A stretch of DNA of 64,000 nucleotides from Candidatus Latescibacterota bacterium (GTDB lineage: Bacteria > Latescibacterota > UBA2968): the NCBI GenBank assembly GCA_965198115.1, contig OZ240241.1, forward strand, positions 5,984,001 to 6,048,000, written 5' to 3'. Of this stretch, positions 29,843 through 63,309 are shown one piece after another. The notes below the pieces were generated by a model. It saw only the letters and a program-made list of their open reading frames with translations, was not told where the DNA came from and did no database searches. A program made the translations under genes and the position numbers. The stretch's first letter is position 1; each line of letters opens with the position of its first letter.

Positions 29843-29843
29843 A

Positions 29844-33479: not shown

Positions 33480-33614
33480 ATGAAACGCACGTTTCAACCC
33501 CATAACAGAAAGCGCAAGAACAAGCACGGATTCCGGAAGCGCATGAGCACGCCCGGTGGCCGAGCCGTCATCAACCGCCGCCGCCGTAAAGGGCGCAAAC
33601 GCGTTAGCGTTTGA
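33480..33614 (+). CDS. rpmH: 50S ribosomal protein L34
   Basis: Hand translation (too short for the ORF track): [44 protein letters not shown]; AGGA RBS. Confidence 0.97.
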
Positions 33615-33635
33615 TACGCTCTGGGCAGGCCCTCT

Positions 33636-33956: not shown

Positions 33957-33977
33957 CACCCTCCACCAACCGACGAT

Positions 33978-35675
33978 ATGGATAGAAGAACCCTCCTGGC
34001 CTTCGGACTGATCGGCATCATCATTTTCCTGATGCCCTATTACTTCCGGTGGATCAATGGCCAGCCCCTCATCCCTGAAGAATCGCTACCGACCTACCCA
34101 GAAGCGTCACAGCCTCAGGTATTGACCCGTCCCGTGCCGGAACTCGCCACGCCCCTGGCTCCCGTCCCCGATCCGGACGCAAGCAAAGAAACCGTCACTG
34201 CTTCGACGACCGAACCCGTTCCTTACCAGGCCCGCAACGTCGTTGTCGAGACGGAGCTCTACACAGCCACGTTCTCGACACGAGGGGGCCAGATCGTCAG
34301 CTGGCGTTTAAAAGATCACGTCGATGGGGCGGGCTATCCACTCGAGCTGATCGAACCAGGAACAGCGGGTCTGGGGTTGGCCGTCGCCGGGAAGGCGCTC
34401 ACGGAGGTCGAATTCTCCCCGAACCGTTTTCATCTACAGCTTATCGCACACGAACAGGGGGAAATCACGTTCACGGCGATGAGCGGTGGGAAGACGATCA
34501 CTACGCGGATACTGTTCCAGGGCAACCGCTACCGTGTCGAATTCTCCGTGTCCTCAGTGGGTTTGGCACCAGACGACAAGGTGCGTGTCGGCTGGGACAC
34601 CTTCCCCGCCGAGACAGAAGGGGAAACAGGGGAAGGAGGTGGGTTTTACGCGTTTGATTACGACCAGGTCGTAACGAGCGCGGGCGATGTCGTCGAATCG
34701 TGGACACGGGAAAACCTGGCCGATCTCGAACAGTCTCGCCCGAGTGGCCGGATCGGGTGGTTCTCGATCCGTGGGAAGTATTTCATGAGCGCCATCATCC
34801 CCGTGCACAGCCTCGTCTACGACCTGGATCTCCACGATCCGGATGGGACGCCACGTCGGCAGGTTGCGGCCATCCAGACGCACTATCCCGGAGAACCCCT
34901 CTCATTCGGTCTCTACATCGGCCCCCTGTCCTATCGACTCCTGACGCGTCAGGATATCGATCTCTACGGCAGAGAGACCGTTGTCGGTCTGGATGACATG
35001 GTCCAATTCGGGTGGGCCTTCCTTCGCCCGGTTCTCAAGCCCGCGACGATCCTGATCATCCACGCTTTTTCTGCTCTCCGCAACGCCATTCCCAACTACG
35101 GGCTCGTGATCATCATCTTTTCGATCCTGGTCAAGATCGTCCTCTTCCCTTTGACCCGCAAAAGCACCGAGGCGACAGCCAAGATGCAGGAACTGCAACC
35201 CCAAATCACGGTGTTGCGGGAGAAACACGGGGACAACCAGCAGAAATTGAATCAGGAGATGATGAAACTCTACAAGGATCAGAAAGTGAACCCCCTGGGG
35301 GGTTGTCTCCCCCTGTTTTTGCAGGCACCGATCCTCTTTTCGTTGTTCAACGTGTTCCGAAACGCCATAGAGCTGAGACAGGCGGGCTTCGTCCTATGGA
35401 TGACCGACCTGTCCAAGCCCGATACCCTGACCATCGGGAGCTTAGACGTCCACATTCTTCCGCTCATCATGGCAGGATCGATGTTCATTCAGCAGAAGAT
35501 GACTATGAAGGATCCGAAACAAGCCGCCCTCGTCTACATCATGCCCGTCTTCATGATCTGGATTTTCTGGAGCATGTCCTCCGGACTCGTCCTCTACTTC
35601 ACGATGTACAACCTCCTCTCGGTCTTCGAACAGAGGGCCGTTAAAAAGACGGTTCCCGCACCCCAGGCCGCCTGA
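33978..35675 (+). CDS. yidC: Membrane protein insertase YidC
   Basis: N-terminal TM, periplasmic domain, NYGLVII, KMQELQP, NPLGGCLP, SGLVLY. Confidence 0.95.
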   Translation: MDRRTLLAFGLIGIIIFLMPYYFRWINGQPLIPEESLPTYPEASQPQVLTRPVPELATPLAPVPDPDASKETVTASTTEPVPYQARNVVVETELYTATFSTRGGQIVSWRLKDHVDGAGYPLELIEPGTAGLGLAVAGKALTEVEFSPNRFHLQLIAHEQGEITFTAMSGGKTITTRILFQGNRYRVEFSVSSVGLAPDDKVRVGWDTFPAETEGETGEGGGFYAFDYDQVVTSAGDVVESWTRENLADLEQSRPSGRIGWFSIRGKYFMSAIIPVHSLVYDLDLHDPDGTPRRQVAAIQTHYPGEPLSFGLYIGPLSYRLLTRQDIDLYGRETVVGLDDMVQFGWAFLRPVLKPATILIIHAFSALRNAIPNYGLVIIIFSILVKIVLFPLTRKSTEATAKMQELQPQITVLREKHGDNQQKLNQEMMKLYKDQKVNPLGGCLPLFLQAPILFSLFNVFRNAIELRQAGFVLWMTDLSKPDTLTIGSLDVHILPLIMAGSMFIQQKMTMKDPKQAALVYIMPVFMIWIFWSMSSGLVLYFTMYNLLSVFEQRAVKKTVPAPQAA

Positions 35676-43944: not shown

Positions 43945-45846
43945 ATGTTTCGTTTCCGAAAACTGTTCCTCCTCACGTTCCTCGTCTGTCTTGTTTCCGT
44001 CTACGTCACGATCGATTCGAGGTTGGTGACGGGGGCGGACGCCTTCGCCGACGTCGACGAGGCTATCGAGAACTTCCACGACGTGTTCAACCAGATCTCG
44101 TCGTCTTACTTCAAAGAAGTCGAGGTGGGGGAGCTCAGCGACGCAGCCATTCAGGGCATGCTCGAGGAACTGGATCCGAACACGCAGTATTACGATCAGC
44201 AGGGGAGGGATGAGCTGCGCGAGAAGATGCGCGGCAAGTTCGGTGGTCTGGGCATCAGCATCAGCAAAAAGTACGGTCCTGTGCCCGTGGTGATGAGCAT
44301 CTTCGGCGGCACTCCCGCCGATACCGCGGGTCTCGAAATGGGCGATCGCATCGTAATGATCGAGGGGGACTCGACACACGGCGACGAACTCGAGGAGGTC
44401 GTCGGTCTTCTACGCGGGAACCCGGGGACAGGGGTCACGATCACGATCGAACGCCCCGGTTCGGCGGAAACGTTCGATCAGCAGATCATTCGCGATCGTA
44501 TCAAGATCCCGAGTGTGGGTCTCAGTCGTGAGATCGAACCCGGGATCGGTTTCGTGTCGATGTCGGGCACGCTCAACAGCCACTTTGCCGAAGGCACGGC
44601 CGACGAACTGGGCGAGGCACTGCGGAGCCTGAAAGCCGAGGATCTTGATGGATTGATCGTCGATCTGCGCAGCAATCCGGGCGGGTTGCTGATCCAGGCG
44701 ATCGCTGTGGCCGATCACTTCCTCCCGCCGAATCAGAGGGTGGTCTCCACGAGAGGGCGTGAAGGGAACCAGAACGAGACCTACCGAACGCGAAAACCCG
44801 CCGTCGCGGGACACGTACCTCTGATCATACTCGTCAACGGAAGCAGTGCGAGCGCGTCGGAGATCGTGGCCGGTGCCGTCCAGGATTCCGATCGGGGGCT
44901 AATCCTGGGGTTGGACACTTTCGGCAAAGGGTCCGTCCAGACAGTGCGTCAAATCGGACGCAGCAAGGCCCTGAAACTGACGACCGCCGTTTACTACACG
45001 CCGAGTGGGCGGAGCATTCACCGGTCGGTCGATCGGGGTCGACGCGGGGGCAGGCTCCTGCTCTACCTGACGGACGCGGCCCGGGTGCCTGTCTACGAGG
45101 CCGTCGCCATCATCGGCCAGGCCGAGGATCACGACAACGCCGTCAACGAGCTGATGCAGCGGTACAGCTTGAGCACGGAAGAAGCCGAAAAGCTGATCCA
45201 GACCGATCTGTCCTCGTTCGTCGGTCTGGGACGTGGGGACGACGGGAACACACCGAAAGGAAGCGACCCCAAGAAGATTTTCAAGACATCGGGCGGTCGA
45301 ACCATCTATGGGGGCGGTGGTATCACACCCGATGTCGAGGTTGAACACCGACGTCATAAACGGATCGTCGTCGAGTATATCCGGAACTATTTATTCTTCG
45401 ACTTCGCCGTGGATTATCTGACGCGGAACAGCGTTCCGGAGTCGGTCGGAGACTTCCACGTGTCGGACGCTATCGTCGATGAATTCAAGACGTTCCTCTC
45501 GGATACGACGCAGACGCACGGGTACGAATACAAAGCCATCCCCGAGTTTCGAATGCTGGACCTTAAGAAGGCATTCGGGGACTCGGTCGAGCTGTTGGAG
45601 GAAACGAAGAGGGCGTTCGACGGGTTGGAGACCGCTGCCAGGGCAAAACGCGAGTCGGAATTCGAAGCAGCGAGAGAGGATCTCCGTCGGTTGATCGAAG
45701 AGAGCATCGCCGCCGCGGCCTGGGGGGAACGAGCAAAACAGCTGGTCAGTCTGCGCTACGATCCGCAGTTCGAGGAGGCGCTGCGCATTTTGCGGGATGG
45801 GAGGCTCTATCAGAGGAAGCTTGCGCTGGCGGATCCAGACGAATAG
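43945..45846 (+). CDS. ctpA: S41 family carboxy-terminal processing protease with PDZ domain
   Basis: Signal/TM, FGGLGI PDZ, DLRSNPGGLL, SASASEIVAGA, TFGKGSVQ, YYTPSGRSI, GGGGITPD. Confidence 0.9.
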   Translation: MFRFRKLFLLTFLVCLVSVYVTIDSRLVTGADAFADVDEAIENFHDVFNQISSSYFKEVEVGELSDAAIQGMLEELDPNTQYYDQQGRDELREKMRGKFGGLGISISKKYGPVPVVMSIFGGTPADTAGLEMGDRIVMIEGDSTHGDELEEVVGLLRGNPGTGVTITIERPGSAETFDQQIIRDRIKIPSVGLSREIEPGIGFVSMSGTLNSHFAEGTADELGEALRSLKAEDLDGLIVDLRSNPGGLLIQAIAVADHFLPPNQRVVSTRGREGNQNETYRTRKPAVAGHVPLIILVNGSSASASEIVAGAVQDSDRGLILGLDTFGKGSVQTVRQIGRSKALKLTTAVYYTPSGRSIHRSVDRGRRGGRLLLYLTDAARVPVYEAVAIIGQAEDHDNAVNELMQRYSLSTEEAEKLIQTDLSSFVGLGRGDDGNTPKGSDPKKIFKTSGGRTIYGGGGITPDVEVEHRRHKRIVVEYIRNYLFFDFAVDYLTRNSVPESVGDFHVSDAIVDEFKTFLSDTTQTHGYEYKAIPEFRMLDLKKAFGDSVELLEETKRAFDGLETAARAKRESEFEAAREDLRRLIEESIAAAAWGERAKQLVSLRYDPQFEEALRILRDGRLYQRKLALADPDE

Positions 45847-45922: not shown

Positions 45923-48757
45923 CTACTTAGCATCCAGGTTGTGGACGGCATCCCACGCTTCGTCGGGGGGTATGGCCTTGAATTCGTTACAACGTTCGAC
46001 GAAGATCTTGGCTGGGTCCGTCTTCGGCGTCGATCTTCAGACCCGCCTGGAAGTGTGCGATCGCCTCGTCCCACTTCCGTTCGCTATACATGTTGAAGCC
46101 GTTGACGTAGGCGTCGACGACATCCAGCTTGTCTCGCGACACCTCTCCTTTTCGCCCGAGGACTTCGTAAACACGGACGGGTTCATCTTTCCCGACGACG
46201 CGAATACTGTCGAGGGGTCGAACCTCCATGATATCGCCCGCTGCCCGATAGGTGAACTCGGAGATCATGGTCGTGATACCGTAGGCCTTGCCCGCGCCCT
46301 CGAGTCGTGAGGCCAGGTTGACGGCGTCGCCCATGACCGTGTAGTCCACACGGGAGTGCGATCCGAGATTGCCGACGACCATCTCACCCGTGTTCACGCC
46401 CATCCTGACACGCAGGAATTCCCCGCGTCCCTGTTCCGCCCACATCTGCCTCAGCTCGGTCATGCGGTTCTCTTCCTCGAACTTGCGACGGAGGTCCGCG
46501 CACTTCTGTTGCATGTCGATGCAGGCGAACACGGCGGCTTGAGCGTGATCGTGCATGATCATCGGTGCGCCCCAAAAGGCCATGATCGCGTCGCCTTCGA
46601 ACTTGTCGATCGTGCCCTCGTGGATGGCGATGATCTCGCACATCTCCGTCAGATACTCGTTGAGGAGCTCGACGAGCTCGACAGCCGTCAAGTTTTCCGA
46701 GATTGTCGAAAAACTGGCAAGGTCGGAAAAGAAGACCGTCATCACACGCTGATCGCCGCCGAGCTGGTTCACGAGATCCGGGTTCTCGACGAGCTGATCG
46801 ACGACCTTGGGGTCGAGGTAGTGCCCGAACGCACCCTGGACAAACTCCTTTTCCTTCTCTTTCTGCACGTAATCATACAGGGTGATCGTCAGATATCCGA
46901 TCGTCAGCGTCGCGACGGGGCCGAGCATGTCCGCCCAGATCCCCGCCTGAACGAACAGAAGGATCACCCCGATGATGTATGCCGAAAGGATGCTCACCAC
47001 GACAGCCGCTCCAGACAGAGCTTTGAACCTGGGAACGAGGACGCCGATCAGGACACCCAGTACGAGCATGACCACCATATTCTGCCAGACCGTCAAGCGG
47101 CGCAGAAAATTCTGCGTCAAGATCGTGTTGAAGACGTTGACGTGCGCCCCGAGCATGGCTTCCCGTGCCCCGAACGGCGTCGGATTCAGGTCGTGTGTTC
47201 CAGTCGCCGTCAGCCCGTAGAAGAAGATCGTGCCATCGAACTCATCGGCGCTCAGGATCCGGTCCGAGGACTGTTCGCCGTGAAGACCACCCGTGATGAT
47301 ACGGTCGAGAAAGAACAGTGGATGATCGTGCGGCTGCACGCCTCCCGACCGCACGAGTGTACGGATGATCCCTACGCCGAGGTCGATTTCTTCCAGCCGG
47401 GAGACGCTCATCCTGCCTGCCACCTCTTCGAGCGAGAGGTCGGGGTTCTCGGTGAGCACGTCGACGATTCCCAGGTTGTTCTTGATCCGGTTGAAATAGG
47501 GAGCGAGAATCTCGGCGATCGGGGCGATTTCCTCCGCCGGAACACCCATCATCTCGATGAAACCTTCCACAGAGAGCGACCGATCGGCGCGCAAGACCTC
47601 TTCCATTCCGGCGCAGTCGATGACGATGTTCCGATATTCGAGCAACAGGTCCGCGGGGAGGTCGACACCGGCCTCGCTGGCCCTGGCCAGGAAGGCATCA
47701 TCGTCGCCGAATGTGTCGGGTGTCTCTATAAGAGCCCGTTTGGCGAATTTGAGGGCGCGATTCTGAGGTTCCGTCTCTGCAAAATCCATGATCAGGTTGT
47801 AGGGGAAGTGACGATACGTTCCGTTGAATGAGCCCGCCCAGTTCACGAGTAGCTCGCATTGTCCGGAAACGGGAATGCGCAGATCGGCGACGCGTCCATC
47901 TGGAAACCTGACAGACGGCAGCACGATTCGCCCAGGTTGAAATCGAACCTGGTCGAGAGGGACGTTGAGGTAGTCGCACGCCATGGCTAGGCCGAGTGAA
48001 AAATAGACCCGGCCGTCGTAATAGATGGCCATTCGGTAGTGCCGGACGACGCCGTCGTGATCGGGTTTGGGAAGCGCGAAACCGACACCGCGGGAAGATT
48101 CGATGTAGGGAGGATGGGCACATCGATGTCCGTTGCGACGAAGAGCTGCCCACCCACTTCTCTCGCTCTGGGTACGGAGAACCGAGATAACCCTTCGACC
48201 GCCCGGTCTTTGCCCGGAGACCTCTCGCGCTGATTCTGTTCGGCGAACTCGACTGTCTTGCCTTCGGCGATTTCGAATGTCTGCGACAGATAGACGATTC
48301 CGGTCTTGTTGGCGACGTCGACGAAGTCCCGGTCGTGATCCTGCACCAGGTCGAGAACGGCCGATCGCGTGAAGCCTTCGTCCCCAAGGTCGGCAACGGC
48401 GTCCGGCGACAGACGCTCCCCGGCCGGCTCGTAGAAGAACATATCGAAGCCGACCATCCGGGCGCCGTAGGTGTGAATCGTCTCGACCATGCGAGCGTGA
48501 AGATCCCGCGTGAACGGAAACCCGTGTGTCTGGTAGGCCAGATCATCGATGTCGATCGTGGCGACCGACGGGAGCTGGAAGGGTTCTCCGAACCAGTCGT
48601 TACGCTTCCGGAAGCGGAAGTCGTAGCTGCTCGACTCGAGATCCTGGTAGAAATTGGTCATCGAGATCAGGGCGATCACGATCGCCGCGGCGATACCGAG
48701 AAAGAGCTCGATTGAAAAACCGGACTCTGACTTTACCTGTTTCTCTTCGTCGGGCAT
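45923..48757 (-). CDS. CHASE2-domain class III adenylate cyclase with C-terminal TPR (frameshifts at ~48110 and ~46013)
   Basis: N-terminal TM; CHASE2 motifs IDIDD, FPFTR, VGFDMFF, DHDGVVR, THDLNPTPF; 3 TM; FSDLASFS, IDKFEGDAIMAFWGAP, YTVMGDAVNLASRLEG; the repaired C-terminus ends WDAVHNLDAK*. Confidence 0.88.
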
Positions 48758-48848
48758 TGGGTGTCCTCGCTGGGGTGAGCGACATCCGGAAACGACGCCC
48801 CAGAATATAAACTGCGATAGGAGGGTGGCGCAAAACGCTGTTACGTCC

Positions 48849-48889
48849 AAACATAGAAAGGCGATGCCGGATCGTGTCCGACATCGCCT
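48849..48889 (-). terminator. Intrinsic terminator between the small TPR gene and the cyclase
   Basis: AGGCGATGTCGGA-CACGA-TCCGGCATCGCCT followed by TTCTATGTTT. Confidence 0.75.
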
Positions 48890-48913
48890 ATGGGGAGTTG
48901 ATGTATCGCCAGG

Positions 48914-49303
48914 CTACTCGATGCCCGTCAGCTCTCCGGCCGCCTGCTCGGCGAATGGGGAATCTCCGTGGTTCTCGACGAGGTCGCTGTAGACTTTCTT
49001 GGCCTCTTCGAGTTCTCCGAGCTGGACGTGACACTGGGCGACGAAGAATTTCTGCTCGGGCACGGCCTCTCCGTTCGGATCGGCTTCGATCGAAGATGTC
49101 AGCTGCGTGATCGCATTCTTCAGGTCGACGCGGCTGGGATATCGCACGCCGCCCTTGTAATAGAGCTGGTCGAGCACGGCATCTTCGGCCTCGGCTCCAC
49201 GCACACCGGCCACGGTGCGTGTCTGCTGCGTCTCGTAGGCCTGCTTTTTGGTGACTTTCTGGATCGCCTTGAGTGGGTGAAACCTGCCAGGTCCACCCGT
49301 CAC
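48914..49303 (-). CDS. Small TPR protein (YbgF/BamD-like C-terminal TPR); 5' end uncertain
   Basis: TVAGVRGAE motif, then FFVAQCHVQLGELEEAKKVYSDLVENHGDSPFAEQA; no signal peptide visible. Confidence 0.65.
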   Translation of the reverse strand: MTGGPGRFHPLKAIQKVTKKQAYETQQTRTVAGVRGAEAEDAVLDQLYYKGGVRYPSRVDLKNAITQLTSSIEADPNGEAVPEQKFFVAQCHVQLGELEEAKKVYSDLVENHGDSPFAEQAAGELTGIE

Positions 49304-49456
49304 CTGTTATGAAAATACGGCAAATCGGGGTGGGAGCACGTGATTCAGGACACGCCAGAGAAGAATTTCATGACCCGTTTAACATGTTGTTTTAAACAGG
49401 GATACATAATTTGTGCGGTTGAAAAAGTGCGTGGCGTCACACCGGGAACGAACTTT

Positions 49457-52400
49457 CTAATCTAGAAATTCGAGCTGTCCCTGCAAGGAAGGCTCGAGCT
49501 CAACGGCGCGACGATACGACGCTTTAGCCTGTGCCGCATCGCCCTGCAGATGTCGGAGAATCGCGAGGTTCAGATGGAATCCGGCATTTTGGAGCTGGCG
49601 TTCGAGGGCCCGTTCGAACGATTCCGCCGCACCGGGATAGTCGCGTTGGTGGATCAGCACGACGCCTTTGCCGTTGAGGGCATCGGCATTCCCCGGGTTG
49701 AGGGAGATGGCGCGATCGAACGCCTCGGTCGCACGATCGTAGCGTTTGAGACGAAGGAAAGCGGCTCCGTCATCGTAGGCCTTGTCAGAAGCGATGCGCT
49801 GCAACGGCCCGACGGATCCGGTCGTTGACGCGGTCACGGAGATCTCCGACAACGGTCGCCCGCCGGTGATCACGTCGAGCTGTCCTTCGTAGGACGCGTC
49901 GTAGGCCACAGCCTTCTTGTAGGCGGCGATCGCCTCGTCCTTCTTGCCCTGGAGGTGATACGTGATCGCCAGGTTAGCCTGATAGCCAGCGTTGTTGGGA
50001 TCGATGGCGATGGCCTTCCGATAGGCGTCGATGGCCTCGGTATACTGATGCTTGCGGGTGGCGATGACGCCCTTGCCATTGAGCGCGTCGGCATTCTCAG
50101 GATTCAACGAAAGCGCTCTGTCGAATTGCTCGGTTGCGCGATCGTCCCGTTTAAGCCTCAGGTAGGCGGCGCCGTCGTCATAGGACTTTTCGGATGCGAT
50201 GCGCTGGAGCGGGTCGACTTTTGTGGGCCGGGTCGATACGGCGCCCGTGAGGAAATCGAGGGTACCCGCAAAGTCCCGATTGATCCGGACCGCCTCCTGA
50301 TAGACCTGTTGCGCGTCGTCGCCTCTGCCCTGGAGGTGGTAGGTGAGCGCGAGGTTGATCCTGAAGCCAGCGTCATTCGGGTTGAGCTCGAGCGCCTTGT
50401 TGTAAAGCTCGAGCGCCTCGTCGTAGCGCCGCCGCTTGGTCATGACGACGCCCAATGCGTTGTAGGCGTCGGCCAGACCCGCGTCCATCTTGATCGCGTC
50501 GGTGAAGGACGTTTCCGCCCGCTCGAGCTGGTTCAGTCGCAGATAGGCTGCACCGGCATCGTAGAGTCCCTCGGCACTGTCGAGGGAGACGCCGGAGACG
50601 AGCGCGATCCGGTCCAGACGCGTCTCGAAATACGCCAGGTCGCGGTTGAAGAGAGCTCTTCGATCGAGGCTTGGGACGGAATGGCGATGTCTGAGTCGGG
50701 GACGACACCCGGGCGAAACGTCTGCTGGGCCTCGGAGACGAGAATTTCGTTGATGAAGCCGCGTTCTTTCCGCACGTAGTACTCTTCGGCCCCGTTCCGC
50801 CACGCGTCGGAGAATGACGATCCGAATAGCGTCGTTTCCACGGGCAACCAGATGCGGTTGTCCCACAGGACGTATTCACGCTCGTTCAGGAAGTAGTCGC
50901 CGGCATCCTGAACAGAGATGCCACTGTCGAACATCATGTAGATGTGGCCGTATTGCGGGTCGTTGACGTCCAGGATGGCGGTCGGGATGTTCAGATTCTC
51001 GAGCATCGAGCAAAACAGCGCAGTGCAGTCGTCGCAGTCACCGATCTTCACGTCGAGGTATTCGTAGGGGTACTTAACGGAGTCGAAAACAGAATCGTCC
51101 TGGAAGATTTCGAGATACGGTGTGGTCTGATCCTGCTGATAGCGGAGACCGTGTGCGCCGATGGCGTCGAAGATGAGGGCGGCCTTCCCAATGTTGTTGT
51201 TCCCGAATTTTTCCCGGAGCAGGTCGGCATAATTCCCGACGAGGCCCCGAGCGAACGCGTCGACGGTTCTGCTTTCGGGCGTGATAAAGGCGGCGATGCG
51301 GCGCGGGTTGGACCAGCTGAGCTTGCCCTTCCCGAGGACGTAGACGCTGTTGAGCGTGCGGGTCGACGTCTTGTTCGCTCTGCCCTGACGGTAGCTCACC
51401 TTGACCGTCGGCTGTACGAGATTGTCGTAGTAGGACGGTTGCGTCGACAGCAGGTCCTGTGGGAACGTCAACGTGAAGCCGTATCGTTCTGTCGATTGAG
51501 CCGGGAGAACGACCGTCTCTTCGTGGGGGGTCTTGGTCAACGTCGGGACATCGATGCTGACGGTCACCGGCAGGGCGTTGGCGGACGCGTTCCGCAGGAC
51601 GACGTCGACGAAGTCGGCCTCCTCATAGGTTCGGTAGAGAGACTTGAAAATAGGTGCAGGCCGCACGATGGCGTCTTTGATGTTGACGATCGACGCGTTG
51701 TAGGAAAGGCCTAGAGTGACGTGGTGCGTCGGGGGCAGGACAGGGTGATGCTCGAACGCATAGTCGAGTTGCGCCGAATTCCACTTGAGGCCGAAGCCGA
51801 GGGCAAAAGCCAGTGTCTGATCCGCCCCCGTTGGCGGACTGAGTGGTCGATTGACGCCGCCCCGCAACAGGAGGGCGGCCAGCGGCTGGTATTCGGCACC
51901 GAAGTGGAAATCATCGCTGTCGACGTCGAGGGCGAGTTTCACATCGGGGTGTGGCTGGACGGATACACCGCCCCGGATGGTCTGTTCGAGCAGCTCTTCT
52001 TCGAATTGCGTGGTGTCATCCTGGAGTTTGGTTCCGCCGATGTCCTGTAGGGCGACCCCGAACCGCAGTTTATCGAAGGGCGGTTTTTTTGGAGTGAAAA
52101 CGAGACCGACGTCAAGACCGAATCCGCTGGCGTTGCGCAGGCTCACGTCGTCGAGTTCGATCGTCTGGAACACGCTCTTAAGTCCGACTCCGAGGGAGAA
52201 GCTGCGGTGGAGCTGCATCCCGTAGGTCAGGTTGACCACGTTGAGGGCATCGCTGAGTTCGGTGTCCCCGAAACTTTCGCGAACCCAGCCAAGACCGATG
52301 GCGTGACGCTCGAACAGCGGGAAAACGTAGGACGCATAGGAGCTGTTGATGTCGAGACCGAACCGGTCGGCATAGGAGAAAACGACTTCCTGACGTTGGA

Positions 52401-52587
52401 GGGTCGGAAGCCCTGAGGGATTCCAGAAAGTGGCCGAGGCGTCGTCAGCCAACCCCGTCACGGTGCCTCCGAGACCAATCGTGCGGGCAGTCGTGGCGAA
52501 AGTGGGTCGCTGGGCCTAGCTGTTACCGGCCAGAGCCACGACGCAGACCGATACGAGAACGGTCAGCCTGGTGAGGGTGTGTGGCAT
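49457..52587 (-). CDS. Fusion of a PorV/PorQ-like beta-barrel, a transglutaminase-like domain and TPR arrays (in-frame TAG at 52516-52518; 2-nt frameshift at ~50655)
   Basis: ATG overlaps the upstream TGA; signal peptide; ARTIGLGG..GLADDASATFWNPSGL and LDYAF..HPVL..THHVTL barrel motifs; GDCDD...GHIY...PVETT triad; about 9 TPRs. Confidence 0.75.
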
Positions 52588-53492
52588 CAGGGCGTATCGT
52601 TCCGGTAGAGGATGCTGGCCTCGAACGACGGGAACTGGCTGTTCACGAGATAGATGTCGAGGTCGCCATCGCCATCGAAGTCGCCGACAGCCGCGTCGAT
52701 ACCGTAGGATCCTCCGATCGACAGACCAGCGGCGGCCGTCTCATCCGTGAAGGTTCCCGATGTCTGAAGCAGAATCTGGCTGACTTGCCCGGCACTGGAG
52801 TTGGCGCCGTTGACGAGCAGGACATCGAAGTCGTTGTCTCCGTCGAAATCCGCCCAGGCGCTTGCCCATCCGATCCACGTGGTCGCTGTCCCGGCCAGGT
52901 CGCCTGTCGCGACATTCGTGAATACATCATCACCGTCGTTCCGGTAGAGGGCGTTGCCGCCGACGTTGACGACCGCCAGGTCGAGGTCACTGTCTCCGTC
53001 GTAGTCGACCCACCGGGCGGCGTGTCCGATGTCGGTGTTGTCGATGGAAGCTTCGCACGCGACCTCTGTGAAACGGCCTGTACCATCGTTCTTGTAGAGT
53101 GCGTTGCTCTGCTCGCGATTGACGACGTAGAGATCGAGGTCTCCGTCACCGTCGTAATCGCCCCACGCGGCGTCTTCGCTGTCCCCGAGATGATCGACGG
53201 CGGCGGAGAACCCGACCTCGGAAAAAGTGCCGTTCCCGTTGTTGCGATACAACCGGTTGACGCTGGCGTTCGCGTTCGCAGCCCAATTGGTGACGTAGAG
53301 ATCAAGGTCGCCGTCGCCGTCGTAGTCGCCCCACGTGGCGCTCGTAGCGACGCGGGAAGCGTTGGGCATCGAATTGGCGACACCCGCACTGCTCGTCACG
53401 TCGGTGAATTGCATCTGGGCACATACCGGTTTTGCCCAGAGCAGGAAAATCGACGTGGCGGCAGCGAGACAGGTTTTGGGTAGATGGGTCAT
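52587..53492 (-). CDS. Secreted FG-GAP/VCBS repeat protein
   Basis: Signal peptide, five (G/A/V)DxDGDxDxD Ca-binding repeats, LYRN motifs. Confidence 0.88.
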   Translation of the reverse strand: MTHLPKTCLAAATSIFLLWAKPVCAQMQFTDVTSSAGVANSMPNASRVATSATWGDYDGDGDLDLYVTNWAANANASVNRLYRNNGNGTFSEVGFSAAVDHLGDSEDAAWGDYDGDGDLDLYVVNREQSNALYKNDGTGRFTEVACEASIDNTDIGHAARWVDYDGDSDLDLAVVNVGGNALYRNDGDDVFTNVATGDLAGTATTWIGWASAWADFDGDNDFDVLLVNGANSSAGQVSQILLQTSGTFTDETAAAGLSIGGSYGIDAAVGDFDGDGDLDIYLVNSQFPSFEASILYRNDTP

Positions 53493-53503
53493 GGAGTTCG
53501 TTT

Positions 53504-56500
53504 CTACCGATTCACGACAGCTACGGTTTTTTGGGTCTGCTCGCCGTTGGCATTAATGACAACGATGTAGAGACCGCTTCTGACGATTTCATTGCGATGA
53601 TCACGACCATCCCAGGTCAGGAGATTGCGCCCTGCATTCATTTGACGACCTGGCTCGAGGACGCGTTGTAAACGTCCCCCGCGGTCGTAGATCTCGACAC
53701 GCACGGTGGCGGTCGCACCCAGATCGAAAGAGAGATCCGTGGTGGTGACGAGTGAGGGTATGGCGATCCGAGGACGTCCCGGTCCCGGTGGAGCCAAGCG
53801 GCGACCAGCGGGAGAGAAGGCCCGGTTGGAGAACTCGATATTTGAAATGGAGCCTGTCCCACCGGCTCCTGATCCGCCGATGAAGAGGCCATAGGTGCCG
53901 AAGTCGGAGATGGAAACCCGGACGACCTGCTGTTCGATCGTGCCTCCGACACGCGTCCATTCGCCCCCCACAAGCCGGAAGATGGCAAGTTGGTCGGATG
54001 TCGTAGCCCCGGGTATGACGATACTGAACGTGGCGGGCTTTCGAAGTTCGATGACCGGTTCGGATGTGATTACGTAGGCCAGGGCCGATGTTTCCGTCGC
54101 CTCGGACGGTGCCGAGTCGATGAAAACGGTCTCGATCTGCACGTCGGGATTCTGGGATAACGTATCGGGCAAGACATTGGGCGAGAGTTCGAGCGTGGCT
54201 GCGCCATCGCTGCTCTGCACGAGGCCGCCCTGACCCCGCGCGATCAGAGCGGGTATGACGGACTCGAAGGGGTTCATCGTGTTCCCCTTCAGGTCGATCG
54301 CCCCCTCCACGCGCACGATGACCGTACCACCCGGTGTCTGCTCCGTGATTTCCACTTCACCGATCCAGAGTCCCCCGCTGTAACTGATCTGTTCGAAAGG
54401 AAGGGGATCATCGATGCCCGTGAGTTGGAGTGTGACCGTGGGGCTGACGGTGTTGTCCATCCCGGCCGGTTCATCTGAGAAGTTGAGTACCACACTGGCT
54501 CTGCGACCTGTTGCCAGCACACGCGGTCTTACCTGAACGCTGTCTACGACCGGTTCAACGGTGTCGACGAGGAAAGACTGTTCGACGCTCCAGGCGGACG
54601 CAAGGAAGCCGAGGTCGACGCTGCGGATCGCCCAGAAATAGGTGCCGGTTTCGAGGTTGATCAGCTGTAGGGATGATCCTCGAACATCGCCAAACCCCGT
54701 GGGACCTGCACCGGACCGAATTTCATTGCCGTCCGGTGTAGACCCGACTCGCACCTGATAGCTCAATGCACCGTCGGCCGTCGGGGTGGTTCCCCGATCG
54801 GTCGCCGGCAACCAACCGAGGGTCACGGCAGATCCCACACTGGCAGCAGTCAGGCCATCCGGAGCCTCGGGGTTGCGGTTCGGGTTGAATCGGGCTTCGA
54901 GGTTATCGTTGACGCGGCTGGACGGGACGAAACTGGCCGTCGCCTGCCCCATACTTGCGAGATCCAGGTCGCCGTCCGAATCAATGTCCGCCCAGGACAA
55001 CGACGAGGACGTGACGCCCACGAGAACATCGATCGGCTCCTGGCCGAACAGGCCATTGTCGTTCCTGTATAGCTGAAGTATCTGGCTCCCGTCCACCACA
55101 CCGCTCACGGCCAGGTCGAGGTCCCCGTCGTTGTCGAAATCTGCCCACCCCACTTCACCGGCTGCAAAACCCGTAAGGTTGGCGTCGATGCCTGTCAGCA
55201 AACCGGTCCCAGGATATAGGTCAACGCGCTGCTGCCGGAAGCATCGTCCCTGTTTGTCGTTCCCCGTCCGCCGATTCGCCCGATACGACGAGATCCAGGT
55301 CCCCATCACCGTCTGAATCCCCCCACGCGAGATCGCCCCCGCGTAACCCGGGGAGATCGATGGCAGGATCTTCTGTGACGGACCCCAGCGGTTCGTTCCG
55401 GGCAATGTAGGTGGCCGGTTCGGACGTATTGGTGTGGCCGGTGACGGCGAGGTCAAGGTCTCCATCGTTGTCGACATCGGCCCAGGCAACGGACCCGACG
55501 ACGCGTGTGGCGCTGAAGAATCGGTCCTCGCGCAGAATCCCGGCGGCATTCGTGAACAACTGAAGCGTGGCTTCCCACGTCGCATTCCAGCCGGACAGGA
55601 CGAGATCGAGGTCGCCGTCGTTATCGTAATCCGCCCAGGCCAGATCGCCACCGGATACGGGTGTGAGATCGGCGTTGCCGGTGTCCTGGACGAGGGTTCC
55701 GAGGGGCTCGTTCAGGTAGATCACGGCCTGACGGAATCCGTCTGTTCCATAGCCGGTCGCGGCGAGGTCGAGGTCGCCGTCTCCGTCCAGATCGCCCCAG
55801 GCCAGTCGCCCGCCATACAGGTTGATCAGCCTGTCGGAGTTGGGTTCGTCCAGGACAAGGGTCGAAGGTCCGCCAAGGGGGCTACCGATTCGGCCCGCAT
55901 CGATTCGACCATTGCGGAAGAGAACGGTGCGTGGGTCTCCGCCGGCGGCCGGGAGGCCCAAGGCGATGAGGTCGGGGTCGGCGGTCGTGATGCCCGATGC
56001 GATGAGGTCGAGGTCACCATCGTTGTCGACATCGCCCCAGGCAAGGGCGCTGTAGCGAAGGTTCTCGGCTCGCAGCGCGGGTTGCGCGGCATCTTCGGTG
56101 AAGCTGCCTGCCTGGTTCACGTAGAGGCTGAGCGTACCTACGCCGGACGCCGTCGCACCGGACAGGGCGATGTCGAGATCGCCGTCGCCATCGTAGTCTC
56201 CGAAGGCGGCTTGCCCGAGGTGGATGTTGTCGAAGGTGTCCGTTGTGGCGGAAAGGACCCCGCCCTGGCTGAGATAGAGTTGGGTCAGAGGGCTGCAGGT
56301 GTCGGCCGGTCCAGTGAGCCCGGTGACCAGCAGGTCTGGATCGCCATCGCCGTCGACATCGGCCCAAGATGTGGAGGAGGCCCAGACGCCCGTGAGGGTC
56401 GACGATTGGGTAAAAGTCTGCCCTTCGACCGTGGGGATCGAAGCCGCGATAAGAGTAGCCGCGGCGAGCGCTCGGAAGATGATGGACTTCCCTGCCCGCG

Positions 56501-56522
56501 GACAGGAGATGCGATGACTCAA
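53504..56522 (-). CDS. Secreted FG-GAP repeat protein with FN3, Ig-like, ZU5-like and FlgD/T9SS-type C-terminal domains (frameshift at ~55220-55260)
   Basis: TTG start with AAGGA RBS and signal peptide; about 9 WxDxDxDGDLD repeats across ORFs 55221..56609 and 53504..55651; C-terminal FSP...EIYD..GR...WDGRD...SGLYIV. Confidence 0.8.
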
Positions 56523-56578
56523 GTGGTGTCCTTCTCGTGGCCCGTTGGAGGCTCCAAAACTACCCGTAAAACGCCGGG

Positions 56579-56608
56579 CAATGTAGTGAGCGGCGGACCG
56601 TAAAGTCA
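56579..56608 (-). promoter_or_regulatory. Possible sigma70 promoter for the FG-GAP/barrel operon
   Basis: TTGACT-18 nt-TACATT. Confidence 0.5.
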
Positions 56609-56643
56609 AGCTTTTGAGGCTTTACGAATGTTGGAAGGAACAC

Positions 56644-56682
56644 AAAAGGGCCGTCGGCCCTGATGACCGACGGCCCCCTTTC
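56644..56682 (-). terminator. Intrinsic terminator after the giant surface protein gene
   Basis: aaaagggccgtcgg-ccctgatga-ccgacggccc; T-run on the minus strand. Confidence 0.75.
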
Positions 56683-56702
56683 CTGCAATGCTGCCCGTGA
56701 AC

Positions 56703-59700
56703 CTATTTGAGCAGCAACATCTTGTGGACCTGCGAGTAGGTCTGGGTCTCGCTGGTCGCGTGGACGCGGTAGAGATACACGCCGCTGGCCACACCCCGTC
56801 CGAACCGGTCCTTGCCGTTCCATCGCAGGGCGTAAAACCCGGGGACGTGCCGCTCGTCGGCGAGCGTGATGATTTCCTGTCCGAGGATGTTGTAGACGAT
56901 CAGCGAGAGATCGGCTGCTTCGGGAACCGCATAGCGAATCGTCGTCTCGGGGTTGAACGGGTTGGGGAAGTTGTGCTCGAGCGCAAAGTCCTCGGGTAAC
57001 AACGACAGACGCGCACCGATGTTTTCGGCGGCGCTGACGACGAGGCTTCCATCGATGATGAGACCTTCAACGATGTTCAGAAGATCGCCTTGCGGATGGT
57101 CCTCAGTCAGGATGAACCGGACCCGCGCGAAGGTCCCCTCGGCTGCCGTTACGGCATCGCCCATCGTCACGGCCCCGGCGATAAAGACCTCTTCGGCCTC
57201 GGCGTCGTGGTCGAGCACACCGAAGGCTTCGGCCTCACGTCCGTCGATCAACAACAGGCCGTCGGGCTGATACGCCTCGACAAACTTCAAGGACGCGGGA
57301 TCGTAGTCCAGGGTAATCCCCATCCCCTTCAGGTCCCGGGCGTTCTGGACGGTAATGTCGACCACCCACTCCCCACCCGATTCGCTGCTGACCGGGCGAC
57401 CGACGAGTTCGATCCGCGTGGTCGTGTCGATGCTGTAGGCCGCGATGACCGCCGACTTGGATGCGGCGGCGTCGGGTTGCACGTAGGTCAGGTTGAACCG
57501 GTTTACCATCTGGACGAAGTCGGTGAAGTTGACCAAACCGTCGTTGTTGAAATCACCTCCATCGATGAAGTTCGCATCGCCGCTCGCCGAGTTGAAGGCT
57601 CCGACGAGCGATACGAAGTCGGTGAAGTTGACGGCAAAATCGCCGTTGATGTCACCTATATACGGTGGCTCTTCGAGGTCGACGGCAAAAGATCCCGTCA
57701 GGAATTCGCTGTCGAACGTCCCATCGCTCGCCTTGATCCGGTAGTGATAGGTCGTGCCGTCGTCGAGCGTGCGGTCTACGGTCCACGCCGTGATGGCGCG
57801 GCTGTCGGTCGAGCCGAGACCCGCACCCTCGGCCAGGCCCGATTCGACGGTAATCGCATCCGTGAACTCGGATGTCGTCGAAATCTGGAAAGTGTAGGTG
57901 AGATCGGCGCCGGGGTTGAGGTCGGACGCCGAGCTATTGTTGACGACGAACGTCGGCGAGGCCGGATCGCCCTGTTTGACGAACAGAGACGGCACCGACG
58001 GTCCCCCATCGGCGGCGGGTGTGACGGATCCCGTCGCGTCGGACGGATCGCTCTGTGTCTGCTGCAGGCCCAGTGCCCGGATGCGATAGTCGTAGTTCGT
58101 GCCGTTGACGACGTTGTTGTCGATGTAGGTGGTGATGTTCTCGAGCGTCGCGATGGGCGAGAAGTCCCCGCTTCCTTCGGATCGCTCGATGACATTCCCG
58201 GTGAGGCCGCCCGATGTGCTTTCCGTCCAGGTCAATGCAACAACGTTGTTTCCGGCCGTTGCGGCCAACGCAGTCGGGGGAACCACGGTCGGCGATTCAC
58301 CCTCTGCGAGGGTCGTGAAAGTGAGCAGGCTGCCCGAAGCCGGCCCGTTCCCGGACCGGTCGATGGATTCAACCTGGTAGGAATACTCGGTGCTCGCCGT
58401 GAGATTCGTGAGGGTGACGGAGTGGTCGGTCACGTCTTACGCGTCGCCCGAATTGAAGTCCAAACTGCCGCTCAGCCCGAACTGAACCGAGCTGTCGGAC
58501 AGCTCGTTCGTACTCCAGGTGACGACGGCCTCGTTGTCGGAAGCGACGACCGAAACGCTGCTGATTTCGGGTTGTAGGATGTCGGGTTCGGACTCGGTCG
58601 TGAACTCGAGAATCGAGCTCGTCGCCGGGCCGTTGTTGCTCTGATCGATCGACGCGACCTGGTAGAAGTAGGGCGTTCCCGCGTCGAGGTTGGTGAGGGT
58701 CAGGCTATGGGTGGTGTTGAAGTCTTCTTCAGTGACGATCTCAGTCAGGTTGTCGGACGCCGTGCCGAATGAGATTTCGGCGTCGGCTGCCTCGCTCGTC
58801 ACCCAGCTGATCGTCGCCTGACGATCGTTGAGGTAGATGACCGATGGGTTGGTGGAAATGACCGGTGCTGTGAGATCTTCGGAAGCAGGTGTCGATCCGA
58901 ACACGACCGCACTCTTGGTCGCGCCGTTGCCTGACGCGTCCGTCGATCCAACCTGGTAGGCAAAGGTCGATCCTGCCGCGAGTTTTGTGAGCACCAAACG
59001 GTGCGTGGTCTCGTTCGTTCCCGAAACTTCCTGGCCATCAAGGGTGGATTCGTCTGTCCCAAAATCAACCGTGCTGTTTGCACTCTCGTCCGTTTCCCAC
59101 TCGACTGTGAGACTCGACGAGGTGCTGGCGACGACGGTCGGGCCACCCGTGATAACCGGGAATTGCGTGTCTTCCTCGGTCGAGGTCGTAAAGCTTCCGA
59201 ACCCACCGGGGACCTGCTTCTTCGTCGTTGTCGGGTCGATGCCCAGAACCGTGTTTCCGGCTGCGTCGGTCGAACTGACCTGGAACAGGTAGTCGAGTCC
59301 AGGTGCGAGTCCGGTGACCGTTACAGAATGGCCACGTACAAGCTCGTTGTCCTCGAAAACGATCTTCGAGGCGTCCCCAAAGATGGGTGCGCTCTCGATT
59401 GACGCGTCGGGAGAACCCGGCAGGACACCGACGGCCACGCTGGAGGTCGACAGCTTGTCCGTGCGCCAGTGGAAGATGACGAAGTCGTCGCCGATCTCTG
59501 CGAGCGGACCTTCCAGGATGATCGGCGGGTTCGTGTCCTCGGACAATCGCGTAGTGAAAGTGTGATCGTTGCTGAGACCTAGTACCGCCGCATTCGCGTC
59601 GGTCGTGACGATGTTCCCCGCGGCATCCGCGGATCCGACGGCATAATGGTATTCCGTGCCGGGCACCAGATCGGTGATGGTCTGGGAATGGAATCGTGCT

Positions 59701-62700
59701 CCCTCGGCTGTTTCGAAGAAGTTGTCGTAGTCGATCGTCAGACCGTAAGAGAGCCGTGTGTCGGCCGGCACGTCGGTCAACCACTCGATGGTCGCCGAGG
59801 TTGCCTGGAGATTGACGACGCGGGGTCCACGTGTGATGGTCGGTGGCGTGTCGTCTTCGATGAGAGGTGTCGTGAACGACAGCCCCTCCGTGATGCTTTC
59901 GTTTCCTTCCGTATCGACCGTCGTCACTTCATACGTGTATGTGGTACCTGCAATCAATCCCGCCAGTCTCAGGGCGTGCCGTCTTTCGACGCTCAGGTCT
60001 TCGACGGACTCTTCGTCCTCGCTTCCCTGTTTGGCCGCTGCTTCGGGCCGGAAGGTGATGATGGCGCTGTGAATCTCGTTGGCGCCCCACGTAATCGTCG
60101 CCCCGTTGGGAGTGACACCGATCGCGACGGGTCGCGAGAATACGACGGGAGCCACTGTGTCGGGCGCGCCGAGGGTGGCGAACGAAAGCTCGCCAAGGTT
60201 ATAGGTTGGGCCATTTCCGGCCAGGTCGGTGACGGCGAGTTGGTTGGTCAGTCGGATTTCGTGACGCCGTGCCGGTGCGGTGGTCGTGATCGACTCACCC
60301 TGGATTCCAGTCGTGTCTCCCAACACACTCGTCGTCGAGTCGTATTGGACCGTAACGGTCGCCGGCTCGTTCGTTTGGAGCACGATGAGGGCCTCAGTAT
60401 TGCTCCGGCGAGGCACGACGGGCGGCCTCACGATTCTGGCATCGACCGTGTCTTCATCGGCCGTTGTCCTGAAGGCGAACATCTCGCTCAGTATTTCATT
60501 GCCTGATGCATCGACTGACCGGACCTGATACGCATAGGCCGTGTCGGCCAGCAAGTTGGACAGCGCGAGACGGTGCTCGTTCACAAGATCGTCCACGACG
60601 AGGCTGTCCGTCAGGTCGGCGGAAACCTGTTTGGCAACGCCGCCGACGGCCGATCCTAGCGCATAGAAGATCGCGCTGCTGCTTGGTTTGGTGGTGATCC
60701 ACCGGACGGCGGCCGCATTGAAGCCCGTGGCGATTGCCGGCCGTCCGACGATGCGGGGTCGCTGCGTATCGACGGTGGTACGCAGCTGGAATCGCCGTGG
60801 TTGCGGAGTTTCGAATGTGTTACCGAGTGCGTCCGTCAAACTGAGCGAGAAAAAGTAGGGCTGGCCGGTCGTGAGCCCAGACAGTCGCAATTCGTGGATT
60901 TTGGACTCTTCGGTACTGCTGACTGTCTCTGTCAGGGCGGCCTGGTCCGTACCGAATGACACAACGGCGTTCGAGGTTTCATCCGTCTCAAGGACGATGG
61001 TCACGCCGTCGGTCGTGATACCGACGGCTGCGGGACCCCTCACGATGCGTGGCGGCCGCGTATCGGCCATCCTGCGCGTGACGAGGATGAGCGGTCTGTT
61101 CGGGAACGGTTCGGATTCACGCCCCTGGGAGTCGATGGCAGTCACTTGATAGAAATAGCGGGTTCCGGGTGAGAGACCCGTGAGCTCGACCCGATGACGC
61201 CTACCCGTCGTGGTTTCGGTGGCGGTCAGGTCGAGGTTGTTGGGATCGGTACCGGCCATCACGCTGCCTGTACCGTCTCGGTTCGTCCCCCACTGGATGA
61301 TGGCGGATTCGTTCGTGACGCGGAGTGGAACGACCGGGTCGGATACGACCGGGGCATCGCTGACATTGGAGCCGAGCGTGAGCGTGATGTTCGGCTCGAT
61401 GGTGGTTGGCGTTTCGGCGACGTAGGTCACCTGCGAGAAGGTGATCTGCGTTCCGCGAAATTCGGGTCGTGTGCGGAGACGGAGAAGACCGAGCGGAACG
61501 TTGCCGCTCACCGGCACGGACGACGTCGCCCTGACCGAGATCGAGTTGCCCTCGACGCTGATGAGGGACGGCGCGACACCACCGGGTGGTTCGATGTTCA
61601 GGACGGCGTTGGGTGTACCTTCGACGCCCGACGGAGGAAACGCAAGGCTTTCGACCGTGAGGGAGAGGCCGTTGAAGTTAGGGGCCAGTTCGATGAGCAG
61701 CGTGCCCGCTCGTGAGGGATCGGCTCCCGCGCTCACGGGAGAGAGGCTCCCGATGTCGAACGAAATGAGATCTCCGACGACCATGGGCTCGGAGAGCTTG
61801 ATTGTGAACGAACCGGTTGCGGAGGTGATGTTTTGGAACCGCACTCGGATCACTCATTCGGATCTGCGCCTGTACACCGAGGCCGCCTTCGAAGTTGGAC
61901 CCGAAGATCTCGACAGCGACGGTGGATCCCCCTTCGGCGATGACGGACAGCGACTGTGGAACGAGCGCGTTGTTGCCGGTACCGTTCTGAATATCGACGT
62001 CGCCATTCGCGAACGAGGAAGGGCTGGTGGGGGGTAAACCGCTCCCCGATGACGTCTGTACCCCACCCGTGGGTTCTATGTTGAGCACGGCGTTCGGCGC
62101 GCCTTCGACACCCGAAACCGAGAAAACGAGGGATTCGACGGTGAGAGACAGTCCATTGAAGTCGGGGGCGAGCTCGAGAATCAGAGTACCCGCCCGAGAC
62201 GGATCTGAACCGGCGTTAACACCGGTCAGGCTGCCGATGTCGAACGAGATGAGATCTCCGTCGATCATCGGCTCGGAGAGTTTGATCGTGAAGGAACCCG
62301 TGGCGGAGGTGACGGATTGGACCGCACTGGGGTCACTCATTCGGACTTCGACTTCAACCCCGAGGGCGCCTTCGAAGTTCAATCCGTAGACCTCGACGGC
62401 TACCGTCGATCCGCCGTCGGCGTGACCGAAAGCGCAGACGTATCGGGGCTGCCGTCACCCGATCCGACCTGGATGTCGAACGCTCCGTTGGCGAACGAAG
62501 ACGGCTGCGCGGTCGGCAGACCGCCTCCGTCACCTCCACCGTCGGCCCCGGGCACGGCGGCCACGAAGGGCGGCGCAGGAATAAATTCCGTCCCTTGGGG
62601 CGCGATGTCGTTCAGATCCACCTCAACCCGAACTCCGAAGCTCGTTACGTCAACCAGATTGCCGGCGAACATCTGGATGGGGATCGGGCCTCCCGGGTTC

Positions 62701-63309
62701 GCACGACTCCGATTTCGGTTTTGATTACCCGGATCCCTGTTCAGGTCGGCTGCGAACGTTTTGGGTATGGCACTCTGGTTCGCAGCTCCGAGTTCGATGT
62801 TGGGTTGCAACGTGGTCGTCCCGACAGAGACTTCCGAGGCCGTCAATTGCAGCGTGGTGAAGGTGGCCGACAGCGTAAACGTGAGTCTGCCGATGAACTG
62901 AAGCCCATCGCCGTCGTCGGCAGGGGCGAAAATACTGATCCAGTTGGCCCTGAGTTCGCTCCCATCGATCGATGCCGGCAACGTTTGTGGGAAGAAGGAC
63001 CCCCCCCGCCGTGACGATGCTCGAAGCGACGATGGCGCTGGGATCGCTGAGCTGAAAGACTACCTCGACGCCGTTCTGACCGGCGAAATCGGAGGCGAAG
63101 ACTTCGATGACTATCGTTTCACCTGGTAGGGCGATCACATCGCGTGTGTCCGTCAGGGCCTGATCGCCCGTGTCGACGGCAATGTCGATTCCGACCTGTT
63201 GCGCGTCGGCTGTACCCGGGCCAAGGGCCCAGAGGGAGAGGGCCACCGTGATGACGGCCAGCCCAATCCGGCTGATGTCGCAGAGGCTAAGCGTCCTCAC
63301 TCGACTCAT
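56703..63309 (-). CDS. Giant secreted protein (~2,200 aa): cohesin-like domains, ~12 FN3-like repeats, dockerin/EF-hand pair, cohesin, T9SS/FlgD C-terminal domain (frameshifts at ~63005, ~62420, ~61837; in-frame TAA at 58437-58439)
   Basis: Signal peptide ending ADA|QQ; five ORFs join into one reading; GDINGDFAVNFTDF/GDFNNDGLVNFTDF; LPEDFALEHNFPNPFNPETTI...KMLLLK. Confidence 0.8.
61580..62525 (-). repeat. Internal tandem duplication (~483 bp unit x2) in the giant gene
   Basis: PSSFANG..DIQ...NFEG.LGV...RMSDPSAV...TSATGSFTIKLSEPM..GDLISFDIGSL...DPSRAGTL..ELAP.FNGLSLTVESL...PNAVLNIEP.GG occurs twice. Confidence 0.9.

Follow-up and report, generated by a model that had tools for sequence, protein, structure and literature searches.

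What might six neighbouring genes do together when they encode a giant secreted protein, two FG-GAP propeller proteins, a fusion of an outer-membrane-type barrel with a transglutaminase-like domain, a small secreted tetratricopeptide repeat (TPR) protein and a CHASE2 adenylate cyclase? The genes lie in a 64,000-nucleotide stretch, here called the window, of the Candidatus Latescibacterota bacterium assembly GCA_965198115.1 (contig OZ240241.1, positions 5,984,001 to 6,048,000). A first annotation made without database searches, the sequence-only reading, had placed them there as a co-oriented set, which is correct; all six are on the minus strand (Table 1). We consider it very likely that the six genes form one signalling module. 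The module is real, conserved, undescribed in the searchable literature and dead in the host genome, and it is a variant of barrel-to-CHASE2 signalling. What is new is that a motif of the small protein, VAGVRG, parallels in sequence the Arg-Gly/Thr motif of FecR domains and the AAIKG of M48-peptidase neighbours beside CHASE2 genes (a slash marks the position after the motif Gly).

The relatives speak for a single module. The order cargo, FG-GAP protein, fusion, small protein and cyclase is kept in 10 of the 40 relatives searched. Among the fusion loci confirmed in genome contigs we kept the best 80 of 193, labelled Latescibacterota, Gemmatimonadota-labelled metagenome-assembled genomes, KSB1, Zixibacteria and Marinimicrobia, although some of these labels look like misbinning. 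A cargo gene with a type IX secretion system (T9SS) C-terminal domain (CTD) lies upstream of the fusion in 63 of the 64 loci that extend 2.2 kb or more upstream, and AGVRG is encoded downstream of it in 67 of the 71 with at least 600 bases downstream. Where at least 7 kb upstream and at least 1.5 kb downstream are available, the cyclase is found in 32 of 33 loci and the CTD cargo also in 32 of 33. The cyclase is retained even in ten loci, mostly of Marinimicrobia type, where it lies upstream of the cargo and, in the majority, 3' of secretin-type genes. Thus the co-occurrence of the fusion with CTD cargo and CHASE2 cyclases extends to other genomes, and the earlier caveat that the cyclase belongs here by adjacency only can be lifted. 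At the level of whole genomes, the enzyme domain occurs in 66, CHASE2 in 80 and both in 61 of 168 genomes of the phylum. In the class of the window (132 genomes, kin included and so not independent) 52 have both, 4 the enzyme domain only, 1 CHASE2 only and 75 neither, so that the two are jointly present or absent in 127. The first FG-GAP protein of the window corresponds to the cargo that relatives encode upstream of their fusion. The giant FN3 protein is not constant across the loci: those of Marinimicrobia type have one cargo of 1,300-1,400 aa, and they also lack the second FG-GAP gene, which has no CTD. Two module copies per genome record set were seen twice (L073 with L072, L127 with L128).

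The fusion protein begins with a barrel of the T9SS shuttle kind. Its residues 25-296 score 107.9 bits with the PorV/PorQ family model NF033709 (cut-off 90) and only 38.6 bits with the PorV equivalog NF033710 (cut-off 250), so it does not qualify as PorV proper. An AlphaFold2 model of the barrel (mean pLDDT 90.4) has 14 strands in residues 41-271 and an N-terminal plug, and its best Foldseek matches are 6h3i_F (E 1.9e-10) and 8gl6_F, chains F of two T9SS translocon structures. The N-terminal domain was thus rightly read as a PorV-like outer-membrane barrel. From the even strand number and the plug, the domains after the barrel, and with them the Cys enzyme that follows the 14th strand, are predicted to be periplasmic. 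The transglutaminase-like fold of that enzyme domain, also proposed before, is borne out in the model: the VIA comparison gave 3kd4 (Z 10.4, root-mean-square deviation 3.1, 135 aligned) and LapG (Z 9.2, 3.6, 146 aligned) as near matches, followed by PNGase (Z 8.8) and transglutaminases (Z 8.4-8.7), while Foldseek returned no match for this domain at E 0.001 or better. Among the 120 homologs listed of 283 found, the putative triad is conserved in 120 (Cys517), 120 (His547) and 119 (Glu583), and the Cys motif GDCDD in all 120. The barrel accompanies the enzyme domain in 117 of these 120, the remaining three being N-terminally partial. No FecR domain was found in the fusion or in the host genome. 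A second barrel-enzyme-TPR fusion of the host (L032, G000:C1:4353936-4370733; 759 aa, triad intact) adjoins a PorU-like gene and is preceded by a Reg_prop+FlgD cargo and an NHL protein. At L033 (6441-10004) the enzyme domain sits on a Reg_prop/Y_Y_Y propeller, after a TonB-dependent receptor and an MFS-cNMP protein. In P0121 (740 aa) enzyme, TPRs and small protein share one frame, which may be a frameshift artefact.

The small protein has a conserved core, W-x19-VAGVRG-A-EAED..L..LYY, in which V-A-G-V-R-G is invariant in 37 of 37 aligned proteins. The residue after the motif Gly varies, being Ala in 61 of 67 and Ser, Val, Thr or Lys in the other 6. An ESM Atlas search with this protein gave a lead only (best feature score 0.75). 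Related motifs stand beside other CHASE2 genes. Each of the 15 proteobacterial plasmid CHASE2 loci examined (12 picked from 38 matches, 3 from 8) has a FecR-domain gene close by. Where the FecR Gly-Thr aligns, x-R-G stands in all 15, in two of them as VVAGVRG/T. In E. coli, FecR cleaves itself between Gly181 and Thr182 (PMC12036975). In the phylum, 20 other CHASE2 loci include five with a directly adjoining FecR-domain gene reading A[AT][VI]RG-T, three with an SH3-M48 peptidase reading AAIKG-F and one with a deviant small protein (L148). FecR neighbours, SH3-M48 neighbours and the small protein all carry Arg/Lys-Gly, which suggests that three unrelated architectures pair this motif beside CHASE2 with a means to cut it: a Thr, an M48 peptidase or a Cys enzyme. 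Of 30 FecR loci of the phylum, 19 have Arg before the Gly and 11 do not (mostly V-L-G/T); CHASE2 is visible in the short flank of 4 of the 19, and beside none of the 11 in the stretches fetched. Two loci with CHASE2-linked FecR proteins reading RG/A or RG/G (L272, L279) have NHLP bacteriocin transporters as neighbours; these contain peptidase domains, one C39 protein being annotated, and are a possible fourth cutter. No solved CHASE2 structure was matched by sequence, and a complex prediction of the CHASE2 domain with a 35-residue peptide ending at the Gly scored 0.24 and 0.01 against a mark of 0.32.

Phages carry the motif as well. The small protein is encoded in 102 viral loci, and in the flanks of the 80 kept there is no fusion or cyclase. 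These phage proteins are closest to Marinimicrobia-type sequences in 79 cases and to Latescibacterota-type in one; 67 of the 80 loci lie within 1.9 kb of a pilin-like gene, and gp32, RecA-like, exonuclease and baseplate genes are among the neighbours. The cassette of small protein and pilin-like gene recurs in marine phages of IMG/VR (L155-L233, for example L175:2278-2754 and L175:3170-3757). A TonB_C protein often accompanies it, and many copies have an extra N-terminal two-Cys domain. A scan for the motif followed directly by a stop codon gave 25 loci, of which 16 are low-GC phage open reading frames (ORFs) and 9 are unrelated. The last 30-45 residues of the 16 carriers repeat the acidic, Trp-containing segment in the N-terminal part of the small protein and stop exactly at VAGVRG. 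With the stop one residue later, none of 12 matches is a carrier, and with the stop one residue earlier there is no match; a second scan for motif plus stop found no new carrier family (4 of 7 matches already known, 3 unrelated). The carriers belong to two unrelated protein families (13 members at 30-100% identity and 3 members) and form about 7 groups under 50% identity, and both versions, full-length and terminal, occur on one contig (L180 and L252). Ends this precise point to the motif Gly as a functional terminus. In the three loci examined, carriers lie directly before baseplate wedge genes; the main family has no Pfam or PHROG assignment and resembles gp5/VgrG hubs at the level of a lead (Atlas neighbours at 0.90 and gene position). 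In different phages the tail is borne by two unrelated neighbouring genes (L237-L244, L247-L249, L252-L255, L258).

We hypothesize that the module is a relay from the surface to cyclic AMP (cAMP), and give this an even chance. By analogy with cargo-linked T9SS shuttles, a T9SS-exported surface protein would dock on its own PorV-like barrel, and a change at cargo or barrel would activate the periplasmic Cys-His-Glu enzyme. A candidate Gly/Ala site, behind the VAGVRG Gly, is where the enzyme would next cleave the small secreted TPR protein; released in this way, the ...AGVRG-COOH end would bind the inner-membrane CHASE2 adenylate cyclase, its presumed receptor, and raise cAMP. At other CHASE2 loci the same end could arise by FecR-type self-cleavage or through the M48 peptidase. 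The probable output is control of surface structures through cAMP, as secretin/pilus-type genes run into the module in Marinimicrobia and the phage small protein is paired with a pilin-like gene. More tentatively, with a little less than even confidence, we propose that CHASE2 is a general receptor for a C-terminal [AG]-[VI]-[RK]-Gly-COOH peptide, unmasked by FecR self-cleavage, by an M48 peptidase or by a thiol protease on a T9SS shuttle barrel, and that marine phages hijack host cAMP. At or after infection they would use a tail-spike protein ending in the ready-cut peptide, together with an uncut precursor encoded beside a pilin.

Several observations weigh against this relay. Conservation of the small protein continues past the Gly (AEAED..L..LYY) and Ala follows the Gly in all 80 full-length phage copies, so that the protein in its intact form matters too. 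In one small-protein ortholog (L148) the sequence is TVAARRA, and among the 20 CHASE2 loci fetched from the phylum only 9 have a motif-bearing neighbour, this deviant included. For fifteen Arg-Gly FecR domains no CHASE2 lies within the 1.5-kb flanks (two of these adjoin a CHASE2 gene according to other results), and thus the motif is no exclusive mark of CHASE2 neighbours. Self-cleavage by the Thr route is impossible in three CHASE2-linked FecR domains, which have RG/A or RG/G. Some fusions come without small protein or cyclase (L086, L114, L111 and the host paralog L032), and the enzyme domain also occurs on a propeller rather than a barrel (L033). Finally, it could be the enzyme that the phage tails act on, as product inhibitors, and not CHASE2 as agonists.

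The last point leads to the alternative that survives best, although we regard it as unlikely: the enzyme cuts at the same Gly and passes the acyl end to an amine of peptidoglycan, of the periplasmic domain of the cyclase or of the cargo, thereby tethering the small protein, and the phage AGVRG tails are product-like inhibitors. A transglutaminase-like fold with transglutaminases among its matches is what such transpeptidation would call for, and the phage evidence sets the end of the peptide, not its target. Arg/Lys-Gly in the FecR and M48 neighbours of unrelated CHASE2 genes is left without an account, however, and no such enzyme was seen at those loci.

Slightly more doubtful still is the idea that nothing is cut at the motif: VAGVRG would serve the intact small protein as an internal strand that binds CHASE2 or the fusion, and the substrate of the enzyme would be a different one. 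The conserved residues beyond the Gly, the Gly-Ala kept by the phages and the three RG/A and RG/G neighbours are all as this idea would have them. It is at odds with 16 phage proteins that end precisely at the Gly and none a residue before or after, with a Gly that is fixed while the next residue varies, and with the alignment of the site to a proven FecR cleavage site (PMC12036975).

Quite improbable, and the weakest of the three, is the model of the sequence-only reading, a dedicated shuttle whose Cys enzyme cleaves or cross-links CTD cargo in the manner of LapG or PorU, with the cyclase loosely attached: the near fold match to LapG, the cargo gene upstream in nearly all loci and the cyclase-free paralog with its own cargo, about 9 kb from the PorU-like gene, fit it, but the enzyme is predicted to be periplasmic whereas PorV binds CTDs at the outer face, an intact PorU-like sortase exists separately, the small protein and the cyclase are linked as tightly as the cargo, and the candidate site is in the small TPR protein, so that cutting of the cargo by the enzyme is unlikely and the claim stays unsupported. 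The literature bears on it from both sides, in that cognate shuttles encoded right after their cargo are described for type B CTDs (PMC12618676), whereas LapG is controlled inside-out by an inner-membrane receptor (PMC3032545) and the inner-membrane partner here makes a messenger.

The surface-to-cAMP relay has a precedent in Sinorhizobium meliloti, where NsrA acts upstream of CyaK/CyaD1/CyaD2 and Clr (PMC7529298, PMC13001267). There too an outer-membrane beta-barrel lies upstream of inner-membrane CHASE2 adenylate cyclases, with a protein signal outside and cAMP inside, and the accessible text of these papers names no periplasmic messenger. The module differs in that its barrel is PorV-like and comes with a Cys enzyme and its own T9SS cargo genes, and in that the motif is in a separate small protein instead of a FecR domain. 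In the S. meliloti replicons we found a 1209-aa FecR+TPR protein with AAIRG/T directly before a CHASE2 match; the records are unannotated, and we infer that it is NsrA. Another FecR-domain target of Clr is described as not required for signal perception (PMC5498481). FecR/FoxR surface signalling is similar in its Gly-terminated fragment at a short motif, and FecR genes are found beside CHASE2 sensors (PMC12036975, PMC5192318). FecR cuts itself at Gly/Thr; lacking a FecR domain and with Ala as the usual residue behind the Gly, the small protein would need an enzyme. With the T9SS shuttles PorV/PorQ and with PorP/SprF, the latter described as cargo-linked (PMC12618676), the module shares the 14-strand barrel family, a gene directly 3' of CTD cargo, and SprA and PorU-like genes in the host genome; it departs from them by the fused Ig, Cys-enzyme and TPR domains, a type A-like CTD and an occurrence outside Bacteroidota. 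The LapA/LapG/LapD system likewise combines a periplasmic transglutaminase-like Cys enzyme, a giant surface protein and a second messenger (PMC3032545). In the module, by contrast, the enzyme is tethered to an outer-membrane barrel, export is of T9SS type, a cAMP cyclase replaces the receptor of cyclic di-GMP (c-di-GMP), and the signal would run outside-in. No description of the module or of the AGVRG peptide was found in the literature searched, which covered papers outside subscription.

CHASE2 is a widespread sensor whose recognition target is called unknown in the accessible text of PMC5192318, where FecR-CHASE2 kinase operons are noted without a mechanism, and the AGVRG tail is a testable ligand lead. 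A five-residue C-terminal peptide is a cheap and direct prediction, and S. meliloti offers a place to test it. If the relay is true, a T9SS shuttle barrel has been put to new use in signal transduction outside Bacteroidota, and phages have a structural protein that acts as a ligand mimic in a second-messenger pathway of the host.

Table 1. Module features in the window, with the length of the intact ortholog from the same genus
Feature	Position in window	Strand	Intact ortholog (aa)
Giant secreted FN3-repeat/dockerin protein, T9SS-type CTD	56703..63309	-	2058
Terminator-like hairpin, 16 pairs, 3' of the giant gene	56644..56680	-	
First FG-GAP beta-propeller protein, FlgD/T9SS-type C-terminus	53504..56522	-	1354
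Second FG-GAP propeller protein, secreted, no CTD	52587..53492	-	423
Fusion: signal peptide, PorV/PorQ-family barrel, Ig domain, transglutaminase-like domain, TPR array	49457..52587	-	1041
Fusion, 14-strand barrel	~52515-51700		
Fusion, Cys codon	51036		
Fusion, His codon	50946		
Fusion, Glu codon	50838		
Small secreted TPR protein with VAGVRG-AEAED motif (AGVRG codons 49210-49196)	48914..49303	-	165
Terminator-like hairpin, 13 pairs, before the cyclase	48859..48889	-	
CHASE2 (large insert), transmembrane helices, class III adenylate cyclase	45923..48757	-	967

The gene products of the window are largely as first described. FN3 repeats and a dockerin (Dockerin_1, 27.5 bits, cut-off 22.9) are borne out in the giant protein; the cohesin had been seen by eye only and has no Pfam match in the window pieces or in the intact 2058-aa ortholog. 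The two T9SS/FlgD-type C-termini reported belong to the giant protein (FlgD_ig; TIGR04183, 28.4 bits, cut-off 23) and to the first FG-GAP protein, where TIGR04183 scores 22.8, slightly below the same cut-off, and FlgD_ig scores 28 in the intact ortholog against a cut-off of 27. The intact cyclase ortholog matches PF05226 and PF00211 and has the SDIAS, DKFEGD and TVMGDAVNLAAR motifs; the cyclase is the sole CHASE2 gene found in the host genome. None of the six genes encodes a GGDEF/EAL protein of the LapD type of c-di-GMP receptor, the inner-membrane gene being CHASE2 plus Guanylate_cyc. Both terminators announced near 56660 and 48870 were recovered as hairpins. In total the window has 10 terminator-like sites where shuffles lead to an expectation of 13.8, and thus only the two long stems stand out.

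A T9SS is at least partly encoded in the genome. SprA (TIGR04189 above cut-off) and a PorU-like C25 peptidase (PF01364) were found in five of five genomes searched, and both are intact in the host, as open frames of 2138 aa and of 1991 aa, the latter with a C-terminal match to the CTD profile. Family models for GldM, GldN and GldL matched none of the five genomes, and the controls gave no match either. With profiles made for this analysis, the host genome has 8 barrel matches and 22 CTD matches, some of the latter not terminal.

The copy in the window is most likely a pseudogene cluster that decays as one module, and not the product of a polishing error. Judged against the intact orthologs of Table 1, lesions occur in all six genes: 9 frameshifts or stops, two in-frame deletions and one lost 5' end. 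The giant gene has frameshifts near 63000, 62420 and 61833 and an in-frame TAA at 58439-58437; the first FG-GAP gene has a frameshift near 55230, where about 375 residues of its ortholog are lost, and the second an in-frame deletion of about 120 residues. A TAG at 52518-52516 and a frameshift near 50653 interrupt the fusion, the small protein lacks its first 35 residues including the signal peptide, and the cyclase is broken by frameshifts near 48108 and 46015. Logan contigs from two runs of one sample cover the whole 17.7 kb with no differing letter and no gap at a depth of about 10, although the assembly may have been built from these very runs. Nine breaks fall within about 6,000 codons of the locus, as compared with 15 in 34,600 for 86 other orthologous ORFs (13 of them broken; a crude longest-ORF pick), that is about 3.5 times the background (Poisson P ~0.001). 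With identical run contigs and this excess of breaks, an origin in assembly noise was rejected, and the polishing once recommended to repair the genes would not help, since the matching runs contain the damage themselves. All six module genes have decayed, while SprA, the PorU-like gene and the housekeeping genes close by remain intact.

Some further observations concern the surroundings of these genes. The giant gene has, at 61678-62420, an additional tandem copy of a ~180-residue N-terminal unit relative to its intact ortholog. In another genome (G036, L030/L031) an insertion of about 37 kb, with similar transposase ORFs at its ends, interrupts the fusion gene. Convergent with the cyclase is a gene for a CtpA/Prc-like S41 protease (43945-45846), present in 10 of the 80 loci, a link that other lineages do not share; proteases of this kind recognise C-terminal ends. 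The window is part of a single 8.43-Mb contig and lies near the replication origin: dnaA, dnaN, recF, gyrB, gyrA and yidC occupy 23962-35675 (dnaA-dnaN-recF-gyrB-gyrA at 24-33 kb), and the GC skew switches sign near 32-38 kb. A GlmS-like ORF at 3055-4482 has 475 aa and one matched SIS domain, the usual GlmS having about 610 aa, and is possibly another broken gene.

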